Below the pieces are notes generated by a model. It had not been told where the DNA came from and did no database searches. It saw only the letters and a list, made by a program, of their open reading frames with translations. The position numbers and the translations under genes were made by a program. A stretch of 64,000 nt of DNA, from assembly GCF_000027125.1 (NCBI RefSeq), contig NC_017626.1. One strand, 5' to 3'. The stretch comes from Escherichia coli 042. Lineage in GTDB: Bacteria; Pseudomonadota; Gammaproteobacteria; Enterobacterales; Enterobacteriaceae. This document shows, in pieces, positions 2,402 through 59,600 of this stretch. Position 1 is the first letter of the stretch. Each line of letters starts with the position of its first letter.

Positions 2402-5465
<3,064 letters not shown>

Positions 5466-9300: not shown

Positions 9301-10227
9301 AAAGATGCTCTGAAAGGCAAAGTGCAGGAAACGCTGTCTGCGGTGGCGGATGACGGTATCGAGCAGAGCGGCTTACATATCTGGAGTTTTGGGCAACTGC
9401 CGGAAAGCTACGAACAGAAGCGTGGCAACTACAAAGTGAAGGCGTGGCCAGCGTTGGTGGATGAGCGCGACAGCGTGGCGATCAAACTGTTTGATAACCC
9501 GCTGGAACAAAAGCAGGCAATGTGGAACGGTCTTCGCCGTTTACTGCTGCTGAATATTCCGTCGCCAATCAAATATTTGCATGAGAAGTTGCCAAACAAA
9601 GCCAAACTTGGGCTGTACTTTAACCCGTATGGCAAAGTGCTGGAGCTGATAGACGACTGTATCTCCTGCGGTGTGGATCAACTGATCGACGCCAATGGTG
9701 GCCCGGTCTGGACGGAAGAAGGCTTTGCTGCGCTGCATGAAAAAGTCCGCGCTGAACTGAACGACACGGTGGTGGATATTGCGAAGCAGGTCGAGCAAAT
9801 CCTTACGGCAGTGTTCAATATCAACAAACGCCTGAAAGGGCGGGTGGATATGACCATGGCGCTGGGGCTTTCTGACATTAAAGCGCAGATGGGCGGGCTG
9901 GTGTATCGCGGTTTTGTCACTGGCAACGGTTTTAAACGGCTGGGCGACACGCTGCGTTATTTGCAGGCGATTGAAAAACGACTGGAAAAACTGGCGGTTG
10001 ATCCGCATCGCGACCGTGCTCAGATGCTGAAAGTCGAAAATGTCCAGCAGGCGTGGCAGCAGTGGATCAACAAACTGCCGCCTGCACGTCGTGAGGATGA
10101 AGACGTGAAAGAGATCCGTTGGATGATAGAAGAGTTGCGCGTCAGCTACTTCGCTCAACAACTTGGTACGCCTTATCCGATTTCGGATAAGCGTATTTTG
10201 CAGGCGATGGAGCAGATTAGCGGTTAA
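6325..10227 (+). CDS. hrpA: ATP-dependent RNA helicase HrpA (DEAH-box)
   Basis: 1300-aa ORF with Walker A GETGSGKTTQ, DEAH box and helicase C-terminal motifs. Confidence 0.96.
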   Translation: MTEQQKLTFTALQQRLDSLMLRDRQRFSRRLHGVKKVKNPDAQQAIFQEMAKEIDHAAGKVLLREAARPEITYPDNLPVSQKKQDILEAIRDHQVVIVAGETGSGKTTQLPKICMELGRGIKGLIGHTQPRRLAARTVANRIAEELKTEPGGCIGYKVRFSDHVSDNTMVKLMTDGILLAEIQQDRLLMQYDTIIIDEAHERSLNIDFLLGYLKELLPRRPDLKIIITSATIDPERFSRHFNNAPIIEVSGRTYPVEVRYRPIVEEADDTERDQLQAIFDAVDELSQESPGDILIFMSGEREIRDTADALNKLNLRHTEILPLYARLSNSEQNRVFQSHSGRRIVLATNVAETSLTVPGIKYVIDPGTARISRYSYRTKVQRLPIEPISQASANQRKGRCGRVSEGICIRLYSEDDFLSRPEFTDPEILRTNLASVILQMTALGLGDIAAFPFVEAPDKRNIQDGVRLLEELGAITTDEQASAYKLTPLGRQLSQLPVDPRLARMVLEAQKHGCVREAMIITSALSIQDPRERPMDKQQASDEKHRRFHDKESDFLAFVNLWNYLGEQQKALSSNAFRRLCRTDYLNYLRVREWQDIYTQLRQVVKELGIPVNSEPAEYREIHIALLTGLLSHIGMKDADKQEYTGARNARFSIFPGSGLFKKPPKWVMVAELVETSRLWGRIAARIDPEWVEPVAQHLIKRTYSEPHWERAQGAVMATEKVTVYGLPIVAARKVNYSQIDPALCRELFIRHALVEGDWQTRHAFFRENLKLRAEVEELEHKTRRRDILVDDETLFEFYDQRISHDVISARHFDSWWKKVSRETPDLLNFEKSMLIKEGAEKISKLDYPNFWHQGNLKLRLSYQFEPGADADGVTVHIPLPLLNQVEESGFEWQIPGLRRELVIALIKSLPKPVRRNFVPAPNYAEAFLGRVTPLELPLLDSLERELRRMTGVTVDREDWHWDQVPDHLKITFRVVDDKNKKLKEGRSLQDLKDALKGKVQETLSAVADDGIEQSGLHIWSFGQLPESYEQKRGNYKVKAWPALVDERDSVAIKLFDNPLEQKQAMWNGLRRLLLLNIPSPIKYLHEKLPNKAKLGLYFNPYGKVLELIDDCISCGVDQLIDANGGPVWTEEGFAALHEKVRAELNDTVVDIAKQVEQILTAVFNINKRLKGRVDMTMALGLSDIKAQMGGLVYRGFVTGNGFKRLGDTLRYLQAIEKRLEKLAVDPHRDRAQMLKVENVQQAWQQWINKLPPARREDEDVKEIRWMIEELRVSYFAQQLGTPYPISDKRILQAMEQISG

Positions 10228-10253
10228 CCCTGCTATTTGCCTGATAAATCTCA

Positions 10254-10286
10254 AACCCGGTAAGCATTTAGCGCCGGGTTTTTTCT
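10254..10286 (+). terminator. Rho-independent terminator downstream of hrpA
   Basis: Inverted repeat aacccgg ... ccgggtt followed by a T-run (ttttttc). Confidence 0.6.
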
Positions 10287-10457
10287 TTATGAATTCTGAA
10301 AAATAGCAAGGGCGGTACTATTTTACATAAGTTACATTCATACTCTGCCCATGGTAAACAGGACGTATTGCAATGAGTAGGCATGATATTTTAATGAGAT
10401 CGTATTATGAGCGAATAATAGAGCTTGATTGCGTCGGTCAGGCTTTAATCTCTTTCT

Positions 10458-10850
10458 ATGAAAAACTTCCAGAGGAAATTTTATCAGAAAATAATGGATT
10501 GGATTAATAGTATGAAAAATGTAGACAATATTATCTGGCATGATGGTGTTTTAGTTGAAACAAGAATGGAATGTCACCACGCCGGGTATAATTTTATATT
10601 GACGACAGAACTTTATGTTGATGAATTTACAGCCGGAAGGGAACGAAAAAGATTCGAGTTTACAGGAGTGGAACATTTATCGCAGGTTATGGATATTGCT
10701 GAGCTTATAGATAACCAAAACGCAGGTAATATTAAAGATGCGACAATTGTTTATAAGGCAAAGAAGTATGAAATTTCACTTCATTTGTTTGGCGGTTTTT
10801 TAAGTTTTACATTTAAAACCATGCGAGTTGTTGACAATGAATTTGAGTAA
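10458..10850 (+). CDS. Hypothetical protein, islet ORF A (start uncertain)
   Basis: 130-codon ORF in an AT-rich block; alternative starts at 10494 and 10512; no recognisable motif; its stop overlaps ORF B. Confidence 0.45.
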   Translation: MKNFQRKFYQKIMDWINSMKNVDNIIWHDGVLVETRMECHHAGYNFILTTELYVDEFTAGRERKRFEFTGVEHLSQVMDIAELIDNQNAGNIKDATIVYKAKKYEISLHLFGGFLSFTFKTMRVVDNEFE

Positions 10851-46653: not shown

Positions 46654-48755
46654 TACTCAAATCGCCATGCAATATTCATGCCGACACCATAATTTCGCCC
46701 GGGCGCAGGTTCGTAATATCGCCCGTTTGACTCATTGACAATGACAGAACCAACGTATTCTTTATCGAATAAATTATCGACACGACCAAATAAATCCACA
46801 GTTAAATTGTGGTAATTGTATTTATACCCGGTGAATAAGCCGACGAGAGTATAAGACGGCGCTTTGGCCGTATTTTCATCATCTGCCATAATATCGCCCA
46901 TATAACGCGCTTCCGTACCTGCATACCAGCCATCCTCCGGTACATAACCTATCGACGCAAAGCCCATATTACGGGCGATCCCTGGCATCCGATTACCGTT
47001 ACAATCCTGTTCATTGCAAACATTGCTGCGATAGGTCGCATCGAGCCAGGTCCAGGACGCTTTTACACGAAAATCTCCCGCGAAACGTTGATCCCATGCC
47101 AGCTCAGCGCCTTGACGACGGGTCTTTCCGGCATTTTTGTAAGTCGTACGCCCACCGCTACTGCTATCGACAACAATTTCATCATCGGTGTCGGTCTGGA
47201 ACAATGCGAGACTAAGCAGCCCATCACCAATACGCGTTTTACTGCCGATCTCAATTGTATCGTTGGTGGATGGTTTTAAACCAAAGTTCATACCGCTTTG
47301 ACCGTCAGCACGATAAGACAGCTCATTAATCGTCGGCGTTTCAAAACCTCGCCCGGCTGCCAGATAGATATTCCAGGCATCGGTCATTGCATATTTTAAC
47401 GAACCGGCAGGTAGCCATTTGTGATAACTGGCATCACCGCTGTCATCGCCGTTACCCGGAGTAACGTAATGGTCGTTGGAATCAAACCATACGGAGCTGT
47501 AGCGCACGCCAGCATCCAGCGACAGTTTTTCGCTCAGCTGCCACTGTGTCTGCAAATAGGGATCGACGTTCCACATCAGATTGCGTTCGTCACGGCGCAA
47601 CTCACCTTTTTGCCCGTATTCCGGCACGCCGCTATTCAGGCGGAAGTTATTGTAGCCTTTGCGATTTTCACTCATGTTTTCGTAGTTCAGGCCGGTAGTG
47701 AACGTGAGCGGAACGCCCAGCTCGCCACGGTGTGTCCAGCGGCTGTCTATCCCCTGATAATGGCGTTGCAGAGTAATCACGCCGCCCGCATGCGACGGGT
47801 TAAGTTGTGGTGCCATCGGGATTGACTGGTACTGGGTCGTTTCTCGCTCCCCGGCATACATCATCACACTCATATCATCTTGTGCGCTCAGGCTACGTTC
47901 ATAGCGCAACCCAGCCTGAGTTTGCTTGATGGTTTTTCGCGTGTCGTACTGTTCAGCGCGTGGCGCTTGTTGCGGATTCGCCTTCCATTCTGCTTCGGTT
48001 AGCCCACCTGGGTCATCTGCTTTGATATCCACACTATTGAAAATCAGGCTTAATTTGCTGGCGTCATCAATGCGTACGCCCAGTTTGGCATTGGCTAAAT
48101 TTTTCTGTGCGCCACTATGATCACGATAGCCGTGGGTCGTAAAGCGCGTGGTTGAGACGGTGTAATCGACATCGCCAGGCTGAGTGCCGTCGCCCATTGC
48201 GCCTGTTGCTTTCAGCCCATAGCGCCAGCTGCCAAAACTGCCGTAGTAACTACTGGCTTCAATGGTTGGTGGCTGTTGTCCGGTCTGGGTGATGACATTC
48301 ATTACACCGCCAGACGCGTTGCCATACAGAGCAGAGAAGGGGCCGCGCAGCACTTCCACATTTTGTACACTGCTTAAATCGATGTTGGATGTTTGCCCTT
48401 GTCCGTCGGGCATGGTGGCGGGAATACCGTCCACATACAGGCGAATACCGCGAATTCCGTAAGTGGAGCGGGAGCCAAATCCGCGAATCGACAGCTGTAA
48501 ATCTTGCGCATAGTTCTGCCGGTTTTGTACCTGCAAACCAGGCACGCTGGTCAGTGATTCGGACAAGTTAATGCGCGGTGTTGCCAGGCGCATCTCCTCG
48601 CCATCCACCACGCTCACGGCTGCTGGGGTATCCAGTTCTGAAACCACCTGCGGCGTGGCACTGACAATCATGGTCTGTTCATCAGCGGCAAAAACAACAG
48701 GGGAAAGGACAAGCAGTGCGGGCAAAACGGTCTGTCGGACGGAAAAAATCTTCAT
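46653..48755 (-). CDS. yncD: TonB-dependent outer membrane receptor YncD
   Basis: ORF extends to 48914; start placed at MKIFSVRQTVLPALLVLSPVVFA (700 aa); signal peptide, TonB box, C-terminal beta-barrel ending in W-R-F-E. Confidence 0.9.
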   Translation of the reverse strand: MKIFSVRQTVLPALLVLSPVVFAADEQTMIVSATPQVVSELDTPAAVSVVDGEEMRLATPRINLSESLTSVPGLQVQNRQNYAQDLQLSIRGFGSRSTYGIRGIRLYVDGIPATMPDGQGQTSNIDLSSVQNVEVLRGPFSALYGNASGGVMNVITQTGQQPPTIEASSYYGSFGSWRYGLKATGAMGDGTQPGDVDYTVSTTRFTTHGYRDHSGAQKNLANAKLGVRIDDASKLSLIFNSVDIKADDPGGLTEAEWKANPQQAPRAEQYDTRKTIKQTQAGLRYERSLSAQDDMSVMMYAGERETTQYQSIPMAPQLNPSHAGGVITLQRHYQGIDSRWTHRGELGVPLTFTTGLNYENMSENRKGYNNFRLNSGVPEYGQKGELRRDERNLMWNVDPYLQTQWQLSEKLSLDAGVRYSSVWFDSNDHYVTPGNGDDSGDASYHKWLPAGSLKYAMTDAWNIYLAAGRGFETPTINELSYRADGQSGMNFGLKPSTNDTIEIGSKTRIGDGLLSLALFQTDTDDEIVVDSSSGGRTTYKNAGKTRRQGAELAWDQRFAGDFRVKASWTWLDATYRSNVCNEQDCNGNRMPGIARNMGFASIGYVPEDGWYAGTEARYMGDIMADDENTAKAPSYTLVGLFTGYKYNYHNLTVDLFGRVDNLFDKEYVGSVIVNESNGRYYEPAPGRNYGVGMNIAWRFE

Positions 48756-48996
48756 GAAAAAAGCCAGGTTAAGAATGGGAAAACGCCGCCATGGTAATAA
48801 AATTGTAAATATATGGAAAACGAAACGGCACGATACGTTAAGTAATTGAGAAAATTGTAGTCGTAACGGCAAGAAATGCTCCACATTTGAGAAAATAATG
48901 ATTACCATTCCCATTTATAACAAGAGCGTAACGATGATTACGCTTAGCGAAGCATTGTGAAGCAGCAAAAATATCGGTTCATCAAAGGGAGTCGTC

Positions 48997-50058
48997 ATGC
49001 ATTTACGTCATCTGTTTTCATCGCGCCTGCGTGGTTCATTACTGTTAGGTTCATTGCTTGTTGCTTCATCATTCAGCACGCAGGCTGCAGAAGAAATGCT
49101 GCGTAAAGCGGTAGGTAAAGGTGCCTACGAAATGGCTTATAGCCAGCAGGAGAACGCGCTGTGGCTCGCCACTTCGCAAAGCCGCAAACTGGATAAAGGC
49201 GGCGTGGTTTATCGTCTTGATCCGGTTACTCTGGAAGTGACGCAGGCGATCCATAACGATCTCAAGCCGTTTGGTGCCACCATCAATAACACGACTCAGA
49301 CGTTGTGGTTTGGTAACACTGTAAACAGCGCGGTCACGGCGATAGATGCCAAAACGGGCGAAGTGAAAGGCCGTCTGGTGCTGGATGATCGTAAGCGCAC
49401 GGAAGAGGTGCGCCCGCTGCAACCGCGTGAGCTGGTAGCTGATGATGCCACGAACACCGTTTACATCAGTGGTATTGGTAAAGAGAGCGTGATTTGGGTC
49501 GTTGATGGCGAGAATATCAAACTGAAAACCGCCATCCAGAACACCGGTAAAATGAGTACCGGTCTGGCGCTGGATAGCAAAGGCAAACGTCTTTACACCA
49601 CTAACGCTGACGGCGAATTGATTACCATCGACACCGCCGACAATAAAATCCTCAGCCGTAAAAAGCTGCTGGATGACGGCAAAGAGCACTTCTTTATCAA
49701 CATTAGCCTTGATACCGCCAGGCAGCGTGCATTTATCACCGATTCTAAAGCCGCAGAAGTGTTAGTGGTCGATACCCGTAATGGCAATATTCTGGCGAAG
49801 GTTGCGGCACCGGAATCACTGGCTGTGCTGTTTAACCCGGCGCGTAATGAAGCCTACGTAACGCATCGTCAGGCAGGTAAAGTCAGTGTGATTGACGCGA
49901 AAAGCTATAAAGTGGTGAAAACGTTCGATACGCCGACTCATCCGAACAGCCTGGCGCTGTCTGCCGATGGCAAAACGCTGTATGTCAGTGTGAAACAAAA
50001 ATCCACTAAACAGCAGGAAGCTACCCAGCCGGACGATGTGATTCGTATTGCGCTGTAA
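48997..50058 (+). CDS. yncE: Periplasmic beta-propeller protein YncE
   Basis: 353-aa ORF with signal peptide and repeated propeller blades. Confidence 0.92.
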   Translation: MHLRHLFSSRLRGSLLLGSLLVASSFSTQAAEEMLRKAVGKGAYEMAYSQQENALWLATSQSRKLDKGGVVYRLDPVTLEVTQAIHNDLKPFGATINNTTQTLWFGNTVNSAVTAIDAKTGEVKGRLVLDDRKRTEEVRPLQPRELVADDATNTVYISGIGKESVIWVVDGENIKLKTAIQNTGKMSTGLALDSKGKRLYTTNADGELITIDTADNKILSRKKLLDDGKEHFFINISLDTARQRAFITDSKAAEVLVVDTRNGNILAKVAAPESLAVLFNPARNEAYVTHRQAGKVSVIDAKSYKVVKTFDTPTHPNSLALSADGKTLYVSVKQKSTKQQEATQPDDVIRIAL

Positions 50059-50140
50059 TAGATATGGCGAGGGTGAAAACGGAGAGACTTGCCTGACTTT
50101 TATCACGCCGTATCCGGTACCTTCGTCAGTAATTTGAATT

Positions 50141-50168
50141 TGCCCGGCACGTAGCCGGGCAATTTTGC
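50141..50168. terminator. Hairpin between convergent yncE and ansP
   Basis: gcccggc acgta gccgggc followed by aatttt. Confidence 0.55.
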
Positions 50169-50170
50169 AA

Positions 50171-51670
50171 TTAACTCGCCGTTTCAGGCTTAAACACAAT
50201 TTCCTGTTGTTCTTCATCTTCCTCGACGACTGGCGCAGTGCTGTGAATTTCAGCAACGCGTTTGCGCACACCAAACCAGCCTATAACCAGCAGAATACCG
50301 ATAATCGGCAGCGCCGCGATGGTATAAGTCCCGTTCGGGTAATCGAACGCCATCAGCACGAGGACGCTCAGCAAAAACAGTAATGTCAGCCAGGAAGTGA
50401 AGGGCGCGCCAGGCAGTTTAAAACTCACATCCGCGGCTTTGCCTTCTTTAATCGCTTTACGCAGGCGCATCTGGCACACGATGATAAACGCCCATGAGGC
50501 GATGATTCCCAGCGACGCGAAGTTCAACACAATCTCAAATACGCGCGACGGCACCAGATAGTTGAGGAATACGCCGACGACATACACAACCAGTGTCGCC
50601 AGAATCCCGGCATACGGCACATGCTGACGACTCATTTTCGCCATAAAACTCGGTGCGGAACCGCCCATCGCCATTGAGCGCAGAATACGTCCGGTGCAGT
50701 ACAGACCTGAGTTCAGGCTGGAGAGGGCAGCGGTCAGCACCACAATGTTCATAATGCTGCCGATATATGGCACACCCAGTTTAGAGAAAAACGTCACGAA
50801 CGGACTTTGCCCCGCCTGATATGCGCTCCACGGCAATAACATAACCAGCAACACCACGGAGCCGACGTAAAACAGGCCAATACGCCAAATCACACTGTTA
50901 ATCGCTTTAGGCACCATGGTCTGCGGATCTTTACATTCTCCGGCAGCTGTACCCACCATTTCAATGGAGGCAAAAGCAAACACTACGCCCTGAATCAACA
51001 CCAGCGCAGGCAGCAAACCGTGGGGGAAGAAGCCGCCATTATCGGTAATTAAATGAAAACCAGTGGTGTTGCCATCCAGCGGCTGACCACTACCGAGGAA
51101 CACTGTACCCACGACCAAAAAGGTCACAATGGCGAGCACTTTAATAAGCGCAAACCAGAACTCCATCTCGGCAAACCATTTCACACCGATCATATTCATG
51201 GTGCCAACGATGGTCAGCGCAGCGAGCGCAAAGACCCACTGCGGCACGCCGCCAAACGCACCCCAGTAATGCATATACAGAGCGACGGCGGTAATATCGA
51301 CAATCCCCGTCATCGCCCAGTTGATGAAGTACATCCAGCCTGCAACGTAAGCGGCTTTCTCTCCTAAAAACTCACGGGCATAAGAGACAAAACTGCCACT
51401 GGAAGGGCGGTGTAGCACCAGCTCACCCAATGCACGCAGAATAAAAAATGAAAACAGGCCGCAGATTAAATAGACCAGTGCCAGTGCTGGCCCCGCCATT
51501 TGCAGTCGGGCTCCCGCGCCTAAAAACAAACCCGTACCAATCGCGCCGCCAATGGCGATCATCTGTACCTGGCGATTGCCCATCGCTTTGTGATACCCCT
51601 CTTCGTGGGCATTAAGCCAGCGGCGTTTCGCGGCGTGCTGATCTGAAGTGTCGGTGTCGTGTTTACTCAT
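50171..51670 (-). CDS. ansP: L-asparagine permease (APC family)
   Basis: ORF extends to 51721; start placed at MSKHDTDTSDQHAAKRRWLNAHEEGYHKAM (499 aa); 12 TM. Confidence 0.92.
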   Translation of the reverse strand: MSKHDTDTSDQHAAKRRWLNAHEEGYHKAMGNRQVQMIAIGGAIGTGLFLGAGARLQMAGPALALVYLICGLFSFFILRALGELVLHRPSSGSFVSYAREFLGEKAAYVAGWMYFINWAMTGIVDITAVALYMHYWGAFGGVPQWVFALAALTIVGTMNMIGVKWFAEMEFWFALIKVLAIVTFLVVGTVFLGSGQPLDGNTTGFHLITDNGGFFPHGLLPALVLIQGVVFAFASIEMVGTAAGECKDPQTMVPKAINSVIWRIGLFYVGSVVLLVMLLPWSAYQAGQSPFVTFFSKLGVPYIGSIMNIVVLTAALSSLNSGLYCTGRILRSMAMGGSAPSFMAKMSRQHVPYAGILATLVVYVVGVFLNYLVPSRVFEIVLNFASLGIIASWAFIIVCQMRLRKAIKEGKAADVSFKLPGAPFTSWLTLLFLLSVLVLMAFDYPNGTYTIAALPIIGILLVIGWFGVRKRVAEIHSTAPVVEEDEEQQEIVFKPETAS

Positions 51671-51936
51671 TGCTCTCCCTGATTGCTTTAATGAAAAAGT
51701 CATATAAGTTGCCATGAACAATGTTTATTCATCCTGGCGATGATAGTTATCACCATTATTCTTTATGGGTATAAAACTATCGGCGCAGCATCCTACCCGT
51801 TATCGATAAACGATGCAAAACATCCCCTTACAATCCTGAAGGGGAATAATACAACTGACGAAAAAATGACAAATCCTTTTGCTGGTTAACCTGTGTACTG
51901 TCCTACACTTAATCTTTAAAAGATTGTGAGGGGCAT

Positions 51937-52554
51937 ATGATTAAGGTGTATGGCGTACCCGGATGGGGCTCTACAATCAGTGAGCTGATGCTAACACTGG
52001 CTGATATTCCTTATCAGTTCGTTGATGTCAGTGGTTTTGACCACGAGGGAACCTCACGCGAGTTATTGAAAACCCTGAACCCGTTGTGTCAGATTCCGAC
52101 ACTGGCGCTGGAAAATGACGAGATTATGACGGAGACAGCGGCGATTGCATTGATGGTTCTCGATCGTCGCCCGGACCTTGCGCCACCGGTTGGGCGCGCC
52201 GAACGTCAGCAGTTTCAACGGCTATTGGTCTGGCTGGTTGCTAATGTCTATCCAACATTCACTTTCGCCGATTACCCTGAGCGTTGGGCTCCTGACGCAC
52301 CCGAACAGTTAAAGAATAATGTTATTGAATATCGTAAATCGCTTTATATCTGGCTGAATTCACAATTGACCGCTGAACCTTATGCCTTTGGCGAGCAACT
52401 AACGCTGGTGGACTGTTATCTCTGCACCATGCGCACATGGGGGCCGGGGCATGAATGGTTTCACGATAATGCGCAGAATATCAGCGCGATCGCTGAAGCT
52501 GTATGTCAGTTACCGAAATTACAAGAAGTATTAAAAAGGAATGTCATTATTTAA
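51937..52554 (+). CDS. yncG: Glutathione S-transferase homologue YncG
   Basis: 205-aa GST-fold ORF. Confidence 0.9.
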   Translation: MIKVYGVPGWGSTISELMLTLADIPYQFVDVSGFDHEGTSRELLKTLNPLCQIPTLALENDEIMTETAAIALMVLDRRPDLAPPVGRAERQQFQRLLVWLVANVYPTFTFADYPERWAPDAPEQLKNNVIEYRKSLYIWLNSQLTAEPYAFGEQLTLVDCYLCTMRTWGPGHEWFHDNAQNISAIAEAVCQLPKLQEVLKRNVII

Positions 52555-53093
52555 CAATAATGCCGGAGGTTAATGTTAATGAATCACTGGCGTAATTAAC
52601 TGGATATCCATTTGTTTGCTATGAATAGTAATTAAAGTTGGTACAACTATTTATATGATTGATGTAATTTCGTTTTTTATATGAAATATCAATTTAATAT
52701 AATCCGAAAATAAAACATCTTTTCGCATGTAGAGAAACATGTCGATATGATAGTGCAGTGCAGATCATGTCATCAGGGTAGGGCGGTAGCGTATTTAATC
52801 AGGGAAAGATTACGCAACGCTGCTTTTTTGTATTGAACGATTCGCATTTTATGTTTAAAAATTGCGATATTCCTTATTTCCTGAAGCTGTTTTTATTGCT
52901 TATACATGATCAAATACTCCTTACATAATTAAGGAGAACAAAATGGAACTTAATACACGCCAACAATTTGTATTACTTAAATAGACCAGTGAAGGTACGC
53001 ATCAGAACATCCGGTGAAGTGATTAATATTTCGTTGAATATTTCTCCCGATTTTTGAAACCTGCTGCTGTAGAAATTCTGAACAGGAGGAATT

Positions 53094-53378
53094 ATGCCTT
53101 TAGCAGCCAAACTCACCGACAAAGGCACCCAGCACGACGGTTATTACGAGACCGTCATCACCGCCGGGTCATCCACCGTCTTTATCGATGGTCTTCCCGC
53201 AGCCCGTCAGGGAGATCCGCTGACGCCGCATGCTAAACCGAAGCATCCCCCTCATCCCCGTAAAATCGCCAGAGGTTCTTCAACCGTCTTTATTGACGGC
53301 CTGCCCGCCGCCAGAAGCGGTGATGCTGTTGACTGCGGCGGCGTGGTTATTGGTGGCGGTACGGTAAATATAGGCTGA
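53094..53378 (+). CDS. PAAR-repeat protein (T6SS spike tip)
   Basis: 94-aa ORF with two LPAAR motifs (VFIDGLPAARQGD, VFIDGLPAARSGD); SD aggagg; 18 bp upstream of vgrG. Confidence 0.8.
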   Translation: MPLAAKLTDKGTQHDGYYETVITAGSSTVFIDGLPAARQGDPLTPHAKPKHPPHPRKIARGSSTVFIDGLPAARSGDAVDCGGVVIGGGTVNIG

Positions 53379-53396: not shown

Positions 53397-55802
53397 ATGT
53401 CCTTAAAAGGTCTTCGCTTTACGCTGGAGGTTGACGGCCAGGAGCCGGACACCTTTGCAGTGGTGAATTTCAGGTTAATCCAGAACCAGTCATATCCGTT
53501 TGTGATGAGTGTGGATGTTGCCAGCGACTCTTTTATGCAGACGGCGGAGATGCTGCTGGAGAAGAAGGCGACACTGACCATCTGGCAGGGCGCAGTGGCG
53601 CAGCGTTATGTCACCGGCGTGGTGGCGGGTTTTGGCATGCAGGAGAATAACGGCTGGCAGATGCGTTATCACCTGCGTATTGAGCCGCCGTTATGGCGGT
53701 GCGGGCTGCGGCAGAACTTTCGTATCTTCCAGCAGCAGGATATCCGGACGATATCGGCCACGTTACTGAACGAGAACGGCGTCACGGAGTGGACGCCGCT
53801 GTTTTATGAGGACCATCCGGCGCGGGAGTTCTGTGTCCAGTACGGGGAGTCGGACCTGGCGTTTCTGTCCCGGCTGTGGGCGGAGGAGGGTCTTTTCTTC
53901 TTTGAGCGGTTTGCGGCGGACAGTCCGGAGCAGAAGCTGACGCTGTGCGACGATGTGGCGGGGCTGTCACAGGCGGGGGAGTTTCCGTTTAACCCGGACA
54001 CATCGGCAGGTGCGGAGACGGAGTGTGTCAGTATGTTCCGTTATGAGGCGCATGTCCGCCCGTCATCGGTGCAGAGCCAGGATTACACCTTTAAGGTGCC
54101 GGACTGGCCGGGGATGTATGAGCAGCAGGGTGAGAACCTGAACGGACAGCTGGAGCAGTATGAGATATTTGATTATCCGGGAAGGTACAAGGATGAACAG
54201 CACGGCAAGGATTTCACGCTGTACCAGATGGAGAGCCTGCGCAGTGATGCGGAAAAGGCCACAGGGCAGAGTAATTCGCCGAAGCTGTGGCCGGGAACGC
54301 GGTTTATGCTGACGGGGCATCCGCAGAAGATGCTGAACCGTGAATGGCAGGTGGTACAGAGCATACTGTCAGGAAACCAGCCGCAGGCGCTGCACGGCAG
54401 CCAGGGAAAGGGAACCACGCTGGGCAATCAGTTAGAGGTGATACCGGCGGACCGGACGTGGCGTCCACGGCTGCAAAACAAACCGAAGGTGGACGGGCCA
54501 CAGAGCGCCATCGTCACCGGTCCTGCGGGAGAGGAAATCTTCTGCGATGAACATGGACGGGTACGGGTGAAGTTCCACTGGGACCGTTATCACGGGATGA
54601 CGGAGGCGAGTTCATGCTGGGTGCGGGTATCGCAGGCGTGGGCGGGGCCGGGGTTCGGTAACCTGGCGATACCACGGGTGGGTCAGGAGGTGATAGTGGA
54701 CTTCCTGAACGGCGACCCGGACCAGCCGATAATCATGGGGCGGACGTACCATGAGGACAACCGTTCGCCGGGCGACCTGCCGGGAACGAAGACGCAGATG
54801 ACCATCCGGTCAAAAACCTATAAAGGAAGCGGATTTAACGAGCTGCGGTTTGAAGACGCCACCAGTAATGAGCAGGTGTATATCCATGCCCAGAAGAACA
54901 TGGATACGGAGGTGCTCAACGACCGGACAACGGATGTGAAACATGACCATACGGAAACCATCGGGAACGACCAGAAGATAACGGTGGTGAAGGGGCAGAC
55001 GGTTCAGGTCGGGACCAGAAAAGAAGGGGGCCACGACCAGAGTATCACGGTGGCGAACGACCGGTGCATCACGGTACGTAATGACCAGACGCTGCAGGTG
55101 ACGAATGACCGGACGGTGAGCGTGAGTAATGATGACGGCCTGTACGTCAGAAATGACCGTAAAGTGACGGTGGAAGGGAAGCAGGAGCATAAGACGACGG
55201 GGAACCATATCAGTCTGGTGGAGGGAAAGCACAGCCTGGTGGTGAAGGGGGACCTGGCGAGGAAGGTGAGTGGCGCGCTGGGGATAAAGGTGGACGGGGA
55301 TATCGTGCTGGAGAGCAGCAGCCGGATAAGCCTGAAGGTGAGTGGCTCGTTTGTGGTCATCCATTCAGGGGGCGTGGACATCGTCGGGCCGAAAATCAAT
55401 CTCAATAGCGGCGGTAGTCCGGGGACGCCGGTGCCGGCGCTGCAACCGGCGGTGCTGAAGACACTGGGGGATGAGAAGAGTGGTGATGGCAGTGATTCCG
55501 GAGAAGAAAATGAAGACTCTGGAGGGAACTGCGTGACCGGAAGTGGTGGTGATGATCGAGGTGACGATGAGGATGAACCTGAAAAATATACTCTCCAGTT
55601 CCATTTTACAGACGATGACGGGATACCGTATTCAGAAACCCGCTACATTGCCTTCTTTGAGGATGGCACGCAGACCCGCGGAGAAACGGATGAAGAGGGG
55701 TATACAGAGCGTTTTTTTGTATCTAGCAAACATGAAATTAAAGTGAAGTTGTTATTTGCGAATGATGATTTTCTCTCAATGGAAGGACACTATGGACGAT
55801 AA
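53397..55802 (+). CDS. vgrG: Type VI secretion spike protein VgrG with C-terminal extension
   Basis: 801-aa ORF with gp27/gp5-like N-terminal two thirds, beta-helix repeat region (TVSVSNDDGLYVRNDRKVTV...), then an acidic Gly/Ser/Asp linker and a ~70-aa C-terminal domain. Confidence 0.9.
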   Translation: MSLKGLRFTLEVDGQEPDTFAVVNFRLIQNQSYPFVMSVDVASDSFMQTAEMLLEKKATLTIWQGAVAQRYVTGVVAGFGMQENNGWQMRYHLRIEPPLWRCGLRQNFRIFQQQDIRTISATLLNENGVTEWTPLFYEDHPAREFCVQYGESDLAFLSRLWAEEGLFFFERFAADSPEQKLTLCDDVAGLSQAGEFPFNPDTSAGAETECVSMFRYEAHVRPSSVQSQDYTFKVPDWPGMYEQQGENLNGQLEQYEIFDYPGRYKDEQHGKDFTLYQMESLRSDAEKATGQSNSPKLWPGTRFMLTGHPQKMLNREWQVVQSILSGNQPQALHGSQGKGTTLGNQLEVIPADRTWRPRLQNKPKVDGPQSAIVTGPAGEEIFCDEHGRVRVKFHWDRYHGMTEASSCWVRVSQAWAGPGFGNLAIPRVGQEVIVDFLNGDPDQPIIMGRTYHEDNRSPGDLPGTKTQMTIRSKTYKGSGFNELRFEDATSNEQVYIHAQKNMDTEVLNDRTTDVKHDHTETIGNDQKITVVKGQTVQVGTRKEGGHDQSITVANDRCITVRNDQTLQVTNDRTVSVSNDDGLYVRNDRKVTVEGKQEHKTTGNHISLVEGKHSLVVKGDLARKVSGALGIKVDGDIVLESSSRISLKVSGSFVVIHSGGVDIVGPKINLNSGGSPGTPVPALQPAVLKTLGDEKSGDGSDSGEENEDSGGNCVTGSGGDDRGDDEDEPEKYTLQFHFTDDDGIPYSETRYIAFFEDGTQTRGETDEEGYTERFFVSSKHEIKVKLLFANDDFLSMEGHYGR

Positions 55803-56583
55803 TAATCAAACTTCTGGACAACCAAAGCCAGAGCCAGAAGAATGTGTGAAAGAGCAAAAAATAACTGATCATTTTAAAATAATGATTGATAAGGCTCGTA
55901 AGGCACAAAAGTTGGTTTTGATAAAAAGAGCAGATGATCTTTTGAGATGGGGAGCACAGGAGGAATATGATTTCAGTAAGATCTTTGGTGTTAAAGGAAA
56001 TAAGGAGGTTAATATAAGAAAATATGGACATAATACAGGTAGGCGCATGAATGCTAGATTTCTTATGATGGATGGTGTGAGAAGATTAATGATTATAGCT
56101 AATGATTTAACAATGAGCAGTTTTATAAATTATACAGGTTGTAATGAATTTGCAGCATTCGTCAGCCCAAGTAAGGATATGCCCTATATAATTAACATAG
56201 GCGCAAAATTTGAGTATAGAGATGGCAAAAAAAATCCAGTAACGGGAAAGGATTCTCATGTTGCTACTTTATGTCATGAAATGTCTCATATTCAGTGGTA
56301 TTATGGGGATAATAAAAAAGGTGGTATGTGGTCACAGGATTATACAACTACTGATAAATATTCAACGTGCAAAGAGGATGAAGTTTCATATGACGAACAT
56401 ATCCGTATTGCAACTAAACTGATCTCTAAACAAAAAGATCAAATATTCGAGAATGCATATAACATAGAAAGATATTTTGAAATAAGATTAATTGAAAGTG
56501 AGATAGACTCGATTAATGATGAAATATTAAGCAATTCAGTTAAGAAAAAAATAGCGGAATTAGAAAAAGCACTTCTCCATTAA
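55792..56583 (+). CDS. Putative T6SS cargo effector with HExxH zinc-metallopeptidase motif
   Basis: 263 codons from ATG 55792, which overlaps the last 11 bp of vgrG; motif TLCHEMSHIQWYYG (HEXXH); no signal peptide or TM segment. Confidence 0.6.
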   Translation: MDDNNQTSGQPKPEPEECVKEQKITDHFKIMIDKARKAQKLVLIKRADDLLRWGAQEEYDFSKIFGVKGNKEVNIRKYGHNTGRRMNARFLMMDGVRRLMIIANDLTMSSFINYTGCNEFAAFVSPSKDMPYIINIGAKFEYRDGKKNPVTGKDSHVATLCHEMSHIQWYYGDNKKGGMWSQDYTTTDKYSTCKEDEVSYDEHIRIATKLISKQKDQIFENAYNIERYFEIRLIESEIDSINDEILSNSVKKKIAELEKALLH

Positions 56584-56606
56584 CTAATAAGTCGAGAAAT
56601 ATATTA

Positions 56607-57428
56607 ATGCTGCAAGCTATAAAAAAAATCATAATAATGACAATCGTAAATATTATATTTTTCTATTCCTTTCAATCGACTGCGGATGAAATGGTTTTAA
56701 TAAAAAAATACGGGTTTGGGCTTGAGAGAGATATCAAAGGAAGGCCATTAATTTATCCTATCGAAAATTATGATGAGTGTAAGAAAAAATGCAATCATAT
56801 GAATTATATAGCGGATGTCAATGCTCAATTAGCTATGAGTAAAAAAAATAACAGGATTTTTGCTAACATAACCTTTACTAACAATAGCTCTACCACGTAT
56901 TTTTTTTCTAAATATTACCTACCTATGAAAGTAAAAGATGGAAAAGGAGATGAATATGATGCGATATGCAAAAAACCATTCAGAATCAACTCTGGGAATA
57001 TCACGTTGGACTACTTAGGTGGTTCATGTCCTTTTGAAATTAATACGAATCCTGAACGGTGGAATACTATTAAACCAGGTCGTAGTTTTTTGTTGAGTAT
57101 AACCTTAAATGATATGTATGCCTTTATACCAGGAGATAATTATTATTTTATAAAATCATCTGGCTATAAATTTGTTAATGACAAGTGGTTTACACTCAAA
57201 TCAATCAATAATATTTTTCTTTATTTTTTAAATTTAAAAATTAATTGTGCTGATGATTTTTTTGATATTAATAATTTTACTACATGTGATAATTTGTTAT
57301 TAGATGAAAAAAAACACTTTTTTATTAATCAGTTATGGGCAATTGAGGATGAAAAAAATTCTATTTACGTCACCCCTGATGAAATTTCTATAAGTATAGA
57401 CGGCGATAACTTAAAGTTGCCATATTAG
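56607..57428 (+). CDS. Putative cognate immunity protein (secreted/periplasmic)
   Basis: 273-aa ORF 23 bp after the effector; N-terminal signal peptide (IIIMTIVNIIFFYSFQSTA/DE); AT-rich; no recognisable domain. Confidence 0.5.
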   Translation: MLQAIKKIIIMTIVNIIFFYSFQSTADEMVLIKKYGFGLERDIKGRPLIYPIENYDECKKKCNHMNYIADVNAQLAMSKKNNRIFANITFTNNSSTTYFFSKYYLPMKVKDGKGDEYDAICKKPFRINSGNITLDYLGGSCPFEINTNPERWNTIKPGRSFLLSITLNDMYAFIPGDNYYFIKSSGYKFVNDKWFTLKSINNIFLYFLNLKINCADDFFDINNFTTCDNLLLDEKKHFFINQLWAIEDEKNSIYVTPDEISISIDGDNLKLPY

Positions 57429-57447: not shown

Positions 57448-57936
57448 GTGCGCCGCTTTTTTGTACTAAATAATTCGCATTTTAGTCACGGCAGAGAAGA
57501 AATCCATCTTCATATTGTTTGCGATGTCCCTGATGAACTTATTGATTTCACGTTTGAATGGAAAGGTCAGAAGAAATTATGCGTGGCAGTCTCCTTTTGG
57601 TCAATAATAGCAGAACAAAAGAAAGAGCCAGAAATGACGGTCAGATATTATATCAGTTCTGCTGATTTAACCGCAAAAAAGTTCGCCACAGCGATACGAA
57701 ATCACTGGCACGTGGAGAATAAGCTGCACTGGCGTCTGGACGTGGTAATGAACGAAGACGACTGCAAAATAAGAAGAGGAAACGCCGCAGAATTATTTTC
57801 AGGGATACGGCACATCGCTATTAATATTTTAACGAATGATAAGGTATTCAAGGCAGGGTTAAGACGCAAGATGCGAAAAGCAGCTATGGACAGAGACTAC
57901 CTCGCGTCAGTCCTTGCGGGGAGCGGGCTTTCGTAA
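57448..57936 (+). pseudogene. H-repeat-associated (ISAs1-family transposase) C-terminal remnant
   Basis: 162-aa ORF whose C-terminal ~110 aa ([63 protein letters not shown]...) matches the C-terminus of H-rpt / ISAs1 transposases; N-terminal catalytic part absent. Confidence 0.75.
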
Positions 57937-58044
57937 TCTTGCCCTGGCGATCGAATAGCGCAGATGACGGTGCTCTAAATTTGAATCTAATAAGCCGGTG
58001 TTATTTTTCATCCACTATTAAAATCTTGACACAACGAGGCAACA

Positions 58045-58605
58045 ATGAAAAAAAGCAAAAAAATTAAAACAATGAACCATCAAAATAATAGCGGGATACA
58101 AAATCAACCAGACTATCACATCGAAATAGAAAGAAAAAATATGGTAAGATTGCTTGATGAACGTATTGATAAAGTTTACGGTTCATTGCTAGGACCAATG
58201 AAAAAGAAAAATATAGATAAAATACGTCATTTTACACTTGATGTAATGGTGTTTATTCTTGACACGAACCCTCGTGTTTGTAATAAATTATCCAGGGAAA
58301 TAATATCTTTAGCGCAAAATACCTTCATTGAAAAAAACGTTAATTTTTCAACTTTTAATAATGAACAGCATAGAATAAGGGAGTATATGAATGAAGGTGG
58401 TGGAATACGATGGTTTACATGGGATAACCCCGAGATATCTTTTGTTCGTGCATCTTTTGGCCTTTTTGTCAAAATGGAAACAAAAGGTGATCATGAACAT
58501 ACACTAAGTGACACATTTCTTCAGATTGTTGAGTGTGTTAATTTAAATATAGGACTTATTGCAAAAGATGAACTGGTAAAAATCATCAATAAACACTTTA
58601 TGTAA
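58045..58605 (+). CDS. Hypothetical protein (AT-rich orphan)
   Basis: 186-aa ORF in a low-GC block downstream of the H-rpt remnant; no recognisable motif. Confidence 0.4.
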   Translation: MKKSKKIKTMNHQNNSGIQNQPDYHIEIERKNMVRLLDERIDKVYGSLLGPMKKKNIDKIRHFTLDVMVFILDTNPRVCNKLSREIISLAQNTFIEKNVNFSTFNNEQHRIREYMNEGGGIRWFTWDNPEISFVRASFGLFVKMETKGDHEHTLSDTFLQIVECVNLNIGLIAKDELVKIINKHFM

Positions 58606-58964
58606 AAATATACTTCTGTATGAAGTTATAATAATACAGTGAAAATCATCAAATTATTAATTAATGATGCTCTTTGTTATTATTTACTTTTTACAATTGA
58701 ATCAGGGGTTTTATTTTCTGTAGTAAAGTTGTATTTTTGCTAAAGGTGATAAAGTACAGGTGTTTATATTAAATTAGAACTCCCCTTAATTATCATAAAT
58801 ACAAAGAGGTGAAAACATGCGGGGGTGTTTTCGTTAAATAATACCATGGTGAATTAATAACATGCTATCAGTGATATACATATTTTCTCTAACAAAGTTT
58901 TAGTAAAATTACGCGTAGTAAGAAGATTCCGCCAAAGATTCCATATAATAATATTAAGGTTGTT

Positions 58965-59600
58965 ATGAATAAAGGTAATAGATTACAACAGTTAGAAGAT
59001 GCGTGTCGTGATATTATTAAAATTAACATGTGGTATGAACTCCCCGATTATGTATTTTTTTCAATATCTGACACCATCGATGGGACGAGTGATGAATTCG
59101 CAATAAATGTGTATAAAAATATCGATAAAAGTCTTCTTGAAATATTATTGCATCCATCTGTTTTACTGTCAGTTGTTGAGTCCTTACAAAGTAATACTAT
59201 AGCTGAGTATATCGTGAAATTGTCTGAAATAGAGATGAATTATGACGACTTGCTAATATCGGATGTTAAATCATGTCTTTTTATCAACTATGGATTCAAT
59301 AACAGTGAATCGGTTGCGCTATTTAATAAGATTTACCGCGAATTAAAAGATATTGTAAAATCATCAAGAGTACATATAGATCATGAGAAAGATATTTTTG
59401 ATGGCCTTAATCAAATCTTGGCTTTTTCCGATAATAATAAACATGAGTATTTTTTATATATAAAGGCATATTGGCTCAGTTTATACTTTTGTGAAATTTC
59501 ACAGAACGTGAGAGAAAGAGATAAGTTGTCATTTTATTATAATGAATTTTCTGTCCGATTTCCTAATGTTGTCCTATATCCGTCATGCTACAAATTGTAA
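58965..59600 (+). CDS. Hypothetical protein (AT-rich orphan)
   Basis: 211-aa ORF in a low-GC block; no signal peptide; no recognisable motif. Confidence 0.4.
   Translation: MNKGNRLQQLEDACRDIIKINMWYELPDYVFFSISDTIDGTSDEFAINVYKNIDKSLLEILLHPSVLLSVVESLQSNTIAEYIVKLSEIEMNYDDLLISDVKSCLFINYGFNNSESVALFNKIYRELKDIVKSSRVHIDHEKDIFDGLNQILAFSDNNKHEYFLYIKAYWLSLYFCEISQNVRERDKLSFYYNEFSVRFPNVVLYPSCYKL

Follow-up and report, generated by a model that had tools for sequence, protein, structure and literature searches.

The conserved backbone of the E. coli 042 chromosome gives way, directly after yncG, to an island headed by a PAAR gene and vgrG, and the question raised by this junction is what purpose, if any, is served by the seemingly empty DNA between yncG and PAAR. 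Here we dissect this gap within a window of 64 kb (the whole stretch of DNA that was analysed, 64,000 nucleotides) and compare it with complete E. coli genomes and with published data for the orthologous locus of strain CFT073. We consider it very likely that the gap serves as 5′ untranslated leader and as control region for a PAAR-vgrG-effector operon, a T6SS auxiliary island, regulated by RfaH.

Extent and mosaic structure of the gap

The gap runs from 52555 to 53093, 539 bp between the yncG stop codon (52552-52554) and the PAAR ATG (53094). A preliminary description, made from the sequence without database searches, had presented it as an AT-rich non-coding junction of about 540 bp following yncG, holding only short broken frames, for example one of 29 codons, and ending in a strong Shine-Dalgarno sequence before the PAAR gene. 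Its coordinates are right and each of these statements holds: the GC content of 32.8% (window as a whole, 48.3%) falls at the 4.7th percentile among 539-bp windows, with a minimum of 26% in 200-bp windows, the longest ORF fully within the gap reaches 31 codons (+ strand) or 29 codons (- strand), and an AGGAGG precedes the PAAR ATG (Table 1). These observations are correct and not remarkable in themselves. Equally AT-rich DNA also occurs at 41.2-42.2 kb and 55.9-59.3 kb of the window, so the AT-richness of the gap alone is unremarkable, and the lack of long ORFs is what chance predicts for 539 bp at 33% GC. No intrinsic terminator is predicted on the + strand between yncG and PAAR (52400-53300), no tandem repeat in the gap exceeds the TRF threshold, and an Rfam search of the gap returned a sub-threshold JUMPstart match, the remaining matches being noise. 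The RNA fold of the entire leader is likewise unremarkable (z = -1.8). Comparison with 5426 complete E. coli genomes resolved the gap into a mosaic of four parts, 52555-52757, 52756-52793, 52800-52953 and 52954-53093, whose features are collected in Table 1.

Table 1. Features of the yncG-PAAR junction, of the downstream island and of loci where an ISAs1-family left end lies next to an ops site. Positions are those of the window unless preceded by the designation of another locus (L).
Feature	Position	Strand	Basis or remark
yncG, glutathione S-transferase family, last backbone gene	51937-52554	+	ORF list; Pfam GST_N domains
203-bp AT-rich segment, 28% GC	52555-52757	+	in place of the K-12 714-bp yncH segment; no similarity to it
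Promoter-like site TTTATA-16-TATAAT	52676-52703	+	10/12; start near 52710, ops then at about +72
Promoter-like site TTCGCA-18-TATGAT	52722-52751	+	9/12; start near 52758, ops then at about +25
29-codon frame atgatagtgcag...	52747-52836	+	as quoted in the preliminary description
AGTGC pentamer run, 2.4 copies	52752-52763	+	overlaps 5′ block of JUMPstart-like element
JUMPstart-like element, blocks CAGUGCA - 18 nt - GGGCGGUAGCGUA	52756-52793	+	Rfam RF01707
ops site GGCGGTAGCGTA	52782-52793	+ (non-template/coding strand of operon)	11/12 match to GGCGGTAGCGTG
ISEc1 (H-rpt, ISAs1 family) left-end fragment, 154 bp	52800-52953	+	megablast, blastn
Terminal inverted repeat CAGGGAAAGAT, 11 bp	52800-52810	+	matches K-12 left repeat and right repeat at 57936-57946
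Hairpin over transposase Shine-Dalgarno	52917-52936	+	-8.0 kcal/mol, z = -6.2
13-codon mini-ORF MELNTRQQFVLLK*	52943-52984	+	transposase start fused to unrelated sequence
PAAR-specific leader	52954-53093	+	AGGAGG at 53084-53089, four bases before ATG
PAAR gene, first in operon	53094-53378	+	PF05488, E = 5e-21
vgrG/tssI, 801 aa, second in operon	53397-55802	+	Phage_GPD, Phage_base_V and Gp5 domains
Second ISEc1 remnant, internally deleted	57458-57946	+	blastn: L001 9198-9224 then 10001-10464; DDE_Tnp_1
Right inverted repeat ATCTTGCCCTG	57936-57946	+	sequence
ISEc1 left end, 6 nt after ops	52782-52810		yncG locus
Different ISAs1-family element, full-length and ~67% identical, 1 nt past the ops of the yncG locus, followed by RHS core gene	L002 4328-4352; L006		21AH004, AF34
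ISEc1-like element, 7-8 nt after ops of E. coli rfb JUMPstart	L068 4001-4027; L165 2572-2600; L167 2572-2599		
ISAs1-family elements of Halomonas sp. 328, two loci, 1 and 6 nt after ops	L007 10207-10232; L008 8444-8464		
Miniature derivative (~215 bp, both inverted repeats present) directly adjoining the ops (0 nt)	L104 near 3861-3880 (- strand)		

On the yncG side, K-12 is collinear with the window over 48190-52552 (97.5% identity, 4363 bp) and collinearity stops at 52552, as would be expected from the earlier statement that the backbone ends at the yncG stop. The K-12 yncH segment (L001 4364-5077) has no match in the window by blastn at word size 7, and a tblastn search with YncH found nothing in the gap, its chance match elsewhere in the window having E = 0.62; an intact yncH (DUF5445) ORF, whose absence had been noted before, is indeed lacking between yncG and the rhs/vgrG island. 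The preliminary description had itself proposed alignment with K-12 as a check, naming an intact yncH homologue or collinearity with K-12 as evidence against it; the alignment places the breakpoint at 52552 and reveals neither beyond it. The suggestion that this is the left boundary of the island is thereby supported, with the refinement, missed at the time, that the boundary is itself a mosaic, because a 37-nt ops module within it (52758-52794) is common to the window and to K-12 upstream of rhsE. Next to yncG the gap consists of a segment that can be exchanged: 3553 of the 5426 genomes have the yncH type found in K-12 and 850 have the 203-bp type, the latter being single-copy and confined to this locus.

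Two of the promoter-like sites, both upstream of the ops, are candidates for the start of the operon. The consensus scan returned four sites where 3.1 are expected from shuffled sequence, so the candidates carry no significance alone; both hexamers of the 52676-52703 site are invariant in six aligned alleles, and the 52722-52751 site is kept in the aligned alleles. The AGTGC run that follows them is under the TRF threshold in the window and is longer by 30 nt, or six extra copies, in strain N47 (L055). A heptamer array of variable length, (GCTCAGT)n, abuts an ISAs1 left end in Salmonella (L041 and L042), and both kinds of array may be slippage-prone leader tracts. The yncG-PAAR locus attracts other insertion sequences as well: yncG is split by an IS3-family element in strain 21AH004 (L002 2158-4100), and strain EC6868 (H1) has an IS1 in the part of the locus that was searched (window 52455-53193).

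The third part of the mosaic is the left end of an ISEc1 element. By megablast this stretch is present in 5338 of the 5426 genomes at a median of six places, with matches that start at 52798 or 52800, end at 52953 and are labelled “ISAs1-like element ISEc1 family transposase” (ydcC, ybfD); the fragment is 93.8% identical to the K-12 sequence upstream of ydcC. It comprises the inverted repeat, the 5′ untranslated region, the hairpin and the ATG at 52943 plus 8 nt, and homology breaks at 52953, leaving the transposase gene cut off 11 nt in. Only the left repeat was found, the right end of ISEc1 being absent from 52954-53093, and nothing of the DDE transposase gene remains beyond these 11 nt, which lead into a 13-codon ORF of unrelated sequence. 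The fragment is therefore a remnant or scar and not a mobile element. Near-full-length, frameshifted copies of ISEc1 occupy the same junction in two gut metagenome contigs (L134 and L115), which identifies the stump as an old insertion that was truncated and joined to the PAAR leader at 52953/52954. The mini-ORF created at this fusion is unbroken in each of the six alleles, which differ at codon 2 (E/K) and codon 5 (T/S), and is probably a by-product of the truncation. The scar accounts for 154 of the 539 bp of the gap and was overlooked in the preliminary description.

A second ISEc1 remnant, situated beyond the effector and putative immunity genes, has lost positions ~55-830 of the element and the left repeat but retains the right repeat, and it encodes a C-terminal transposase fragment in an ORF of 162 aa. 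Pfam returned no match for the four ORFs that follow vgrG (275, 273, 186 and 211 aa; 55756-57428 and 58045-59600), which are located where the window is most AT-rich (GC as low as 27%); the counterparts of the first in CFT073 and UTI89 are annotated “peptidase M35” by NCBI. The fourth part of the gap, the PAAR-specific leader, was found with this PAAR arrangement only, in 687 of the 5426 genomes at an identity of at least 95%. An imperfect hairpin within it (53002-53057; -14.7 kcal/mol, z = -2.3) was considered as a terminator or attenuator and rejected, as its U-run lies inside the stem.

The ops site and probable control by RfaH

The proposal that the gap is a promoter or regulatory region gains substance from the second part of the mosaic, an ops/JUMPstart-like loading site for RfaH on the coding strand of the operon, with the promoter positions standing as candidates; the ops element itself had been overlooked. 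It lies inside the non-coding gap, 312 nt upstream of the PAAR ATG. The exact GGCGGTAGCGT is present on the operon strand, the sole match in the 64-kb window at one mismatch or fewer, and the site conforms to the ops definition (GGCGGTAGnnTG with an invariant GGCGGTAG core, on the non-template strand). Its position 12 is A, not G; the RfaH-bound kps ops of CFT073, GGCGGTAGCATA, likewise ends in A (PMC9765446). The ops is intact and invariant in all six PAAR-bearing alleles aligned, although the leader is uniformly conserved among these alleles (94% mean column identity), so that selection on the ops is inseparable from recent common ancestry. The region is without RNA structure (z = +1.1), as expected for ops, which acts as DNA. 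The match of the surrounding element to RF01707 scores 19.7 bits against a gathering score of 35 (E = 0.027 in a 151-nt search), with both terminal blocks aligned at the correct 18-nt spacing and the central 18 nt unmatched; since the score is below the Rfam gathering threshold, we refer to the element as JUMPstart-like and not as a member of the family.

The same module recurs ahead of related islands. Of the whole gap, K-12 shares positions 52758-52794 alone, at 94.6% identity to L001 5078-5114 (NC_000913.3 1527577-1527613), where an intact ops GGCGGTAGCGTA lies 276 nt upstream of the 5′-truncated rhsE pseudogene. Strain HS carries a related module (L005 3501-3544) 335 nt upstream of a vgrG pseudogene adjoining cusS, its ops degenerate as GAGCGGTAGCATA, and the K-12 rhsE and HS cusS-vgrG leaders are 80% identical over 440 nt. 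A 52-nt JUMPstart/ops query finds a median of two places per genome. Because it recurs upstream of K-12 rhsE and of HS cusS-vgrG, the ops module is a regular opening element of the vgrG/rhs islands of E. coli. Our literature search found no paper that links RfaH with rhsE or that mentions the K-12 ops module upstream of it.

Evidence for function comes from CFT073, where the DNA upstream of c1882 is 96.9% identical to the window leader over 738 bp and the gene order ansP-yncG-PAAR-VgrG is the same. In their ChIP-seq study of RfaH, H-NS, StpA, σ70 and RNA polymerase in this strain, Hustmyer et al. (mBio 2022; PMC9765446) reported c1882-c1889 as one of eight RfaH-bound loci and listed the c1882 ops, GGCGGTAGCGTA, at 1715753-1715764 (-313). 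The RfaH signal on c1882-c1889 was seen only in the Δhns ΔstpA strain, in rich medium, and was lost in ΔrfaH, while the RNA polymerase signal of c1882 was below background in the wild type; the authors accordingly describe a cryptic RfaH-regulated locus that requires some signal for relief of promoter silencing (PMC9765446). H-NS was found on the flanking genes c1880 and c1884-c1886 (PMC9765446), which, together with the low GC content of the gap (32.8% against 48.3%), agrees with the earlier suggestion that this DNA is a target of H-NS. The CFT073 data set gives the c1882 transcription unit as “NA”, and the CFT073 supplements give no transcription start for it (PMC9765446). As the same locus type as the published c1882 leader, the leader described here is of a known kind. 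What is added is its dissection into four parts, together with the recognition of the ISEc1 stump and of the K-12 ops module upstream of rhsE; the CFT073 paper contains no occurrence of “rhs” and does not mention Rhs elements, and its passages on the locus mention neither the IS fragment nor the K-12 counterpart (PMC9765446).

These data bear directly on a much less favourable reading, in which the gap is nothing more than an inert scar of recombination, with the ops and the IS stump as relics and the operon driven from elsewhere or silent. Such a reading would suit a region that is a patchwork of unrelated pieces, that carries an IS1 in one genome (H1) and whose ops module stands before dead genes in K-12 and HS (the rhsE and vgrG pseudogenes), degenerate in the latter. 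We nevertheless regard it as decidedly improbable, given that the RfaH ChIP signal in CFT073 begins at this very ops, spans c1882-c1889 and disappears in ΔrfaH (PMC9765446), and that the ops is intact in six of six PAAR-bearing alleles. It is also unlikely that the ISEc1 fragment serves as the working promoter, from the transposase gene or as a hybrid, so that most PAAR transcripts start downstream of the ops and escape RfaH. The first 143 nt of ISEc1, which are complete here, must contain the transposase promoter, and a promoter-like site (9/12) is present at 52901-52929, but this site is a weak match that overlaps the hairpin and Shine-Dalgarno; moreover, RfaH associates with DNA only by way of polymerase coming from an ops, and for the c1882 leader no other ops is listed (PMC9765446). 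A promoter in the fragment may add transcripts, cannot explain the loading of RfaH and is compatible with the ops route.

The least credible reading by far is that a small protein or small RNA has replaced yncH. The 29-codon frame reads the ops in the phase also used by a 25-codon frame of K-12, and the 13-codon frame has a consensus Shine-Dalgarno, AAGGAG, and is itself intact in six alleles. Against this, the 3′ half of the longer frame is ISEc1 sequence and the UTI89 and PAR alleles alter at least three of its residues (V3A, H9Y and codons 11-12), while the Shine-Dalgarno of the mini-ORF is buried in a stable hairpin. Furthermore, there is no similarity to YncH, no Rfam family was found besides the JUMPstart-like match, and ops sites within translated regions load no RfaH in CFT073 (PMC9765446).

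Under RfaH control of an untranslated leader, the reading that we prefer, transcription would start in the AT-rich 203-bp segment, at one of the two candidate promoters, or arrive by read-through from yncG. Initiation would normally be silenced by H-NS and StpA, as shown in CFT073. Polymerase that escapes would pause at the ops and load RfaH, as ChIP-seq indicates for the 96.9%-identical CFT073 locus, and the RfaH-modified polymerase would then escape termination by Rho over the ~300 nt of untranslated leader and in the AT-rich operon coated by H-NS. This last step follows from what is established about RfaH. The stump in the path of the polymerase is no block to transcription: CFT073 carries it too, and there polymerase with bound RfaH arrives at c1882-c1889. 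As to its origin, ISEc1 would have inserted 6 nt downstream of the ops and later been truncated 11 nt into its transposase gene, leaving the remainder fused to the PAAR leader.

ISAs1-family left ends beside ops sites

At several independent loci, an ops 12-mer is followed after 0-8 nt by the left repeat of an ISAs1-family element (CAGGGAAA...), and several IS subfamilies are represented (Table 1). The junctions of ISEc1 with the rfb JUMPstart include examples in O169:H41 and ATCC 8739, and 140 genomes have a place covering at least 80% of the junction query. The transposase of Halomonas sp. 328 is 51-56% identical to YdcC, and a metagenome contig (L070) related to one of the two Halomonas loci (L008) has a truncated copy. 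In the window, ATCAGGG occurs twice, 26 nt apart, at 52772-52778 within the JUMPstart-like element just before the ops and at 52798-52804 at the IS terminus; comparably, CAGGGTAGGGGCGGTAGCGTG precedes the IS of the other Halomonas locus (L007). The repeat could reflect mimicry of the IS end near the ops.

Scans for an ops followed within 10 nt by CAGGGAAA, covering one orientation, gave totals near chance expectation (32 in genomes and 107 in metagenomes), and only those matches with verified ISAs1 sequence downstream were counted. No convincing target-site duplications were found at the ops-adjacent IS copies. A rule that every ISAs1 element lies beside an ops was rejected: six other sites, in Salmonella and Serratia, and K-12 ydcC are without one, and the pairing of ops and ISAs1 is therefore a recurrent association and not a rule. 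A search of the literature found no paper linking ISAs1 or H-repeat elements with RfaH, ops or JUMPstart.

We tentatively raise the possibility, which we would not call probable, that ISAs1 elements (H-rpt/ISEc1 and relatives) repeatedly set their left end 0-8 nt past an ops, either through targeting by the transposase or because insertions there are tolerated via RfaH read-through; the stump in the window would be one example of such placement. Targeting and survivorship are inseparable in these data, and the association is the only lead presented here that might be new. Were such placement a rule, it would account for the association, long noted, between H-rpt/IS1358 and Rhs, T6SS and O-antigen clusters, and in the case of targeting the junctions would tie a transcription pause site to transposon site choice.

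Significance and comparison with known systems

The gap would illustrate how an orphan T6SS spike-and-toxin island is silenced and then expressed, with H-NS providing the block and RfaH, once initiation is allowed, acting from a single 12-nt site. RfaH and ops sites have been shown genetically to be needed for transcription of an E. coli T6SS core cluster (Cascales laboratory, bioRxiv 10.1101/2025.02.08.637259), and control of both by RfaH would suggest that the machine and its ammunition are expressed in coordination. On a practical level, a junction that would be passed over as “empty” merits annotation with an ops or regulatory feature and a mobile-element remnant. The ops module before the dead rhsE of K-12 further indicates that laboratory strains retain the control element after loss of the weapon.

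The closest known counterpart is the c1882-c1889 leader of CFT073, an orthologous locus with the identical ops GGCGGTAGCGTA and the same ISEc1 stump, in which the ops lies 313 nt from the PAAR start as opposed to 312 nt here. The two differ in the number of modules, one PAAR-VgrG(801 aa)-M35 in the window (UTI89 is alike in this) and two in CFT073, and in yncG, which is intact in the window and frameshifted in CFT073. The stump itself can be compared with the ISEc1/H-rpt elements of Rhs loci such as K-12 ydcC, with which it shares the 11-bp repeat, the 5′ untranslated region, the Shine-Dalgarno hairpin and the start codon at 93-94% identity; the intact element measures ~1.29 kb, whereas only nt 1-154 are present here, without transposase or right end.

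RfaH-dependent read-through in T6SS genes is also known from ops1 of the sci1 T6SS, between hcp and clpV (Taillefer, Desjardins & Cascales, bioRxiv 2025), and from tssH of CFT073. The sci1 ops1, however, lies inside the core cluster between structural genes, whereas the ops of the window heads an auxiliary PAAR-vgrG island. More broadly, the JUMPstart/ops leaders of rfb, waa, kps and hly (RF01707) have an ops on the non-template strand in a long untranslated leader, as proposed for the gap, and the operons that they precede are horizontally acquired and AT-rich, as is the PAAR-vgrG operon. Both JUMPstart blocks and their 18-nt spacing are shared with these leaders, although the middle 18 nt of the element in the gap are unrelated to the consensus. 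The cargo also differs, the classical JUMPstart operons specifying surface polysaccharide or haemolysin and the operon described here a T6SS spike and effector.
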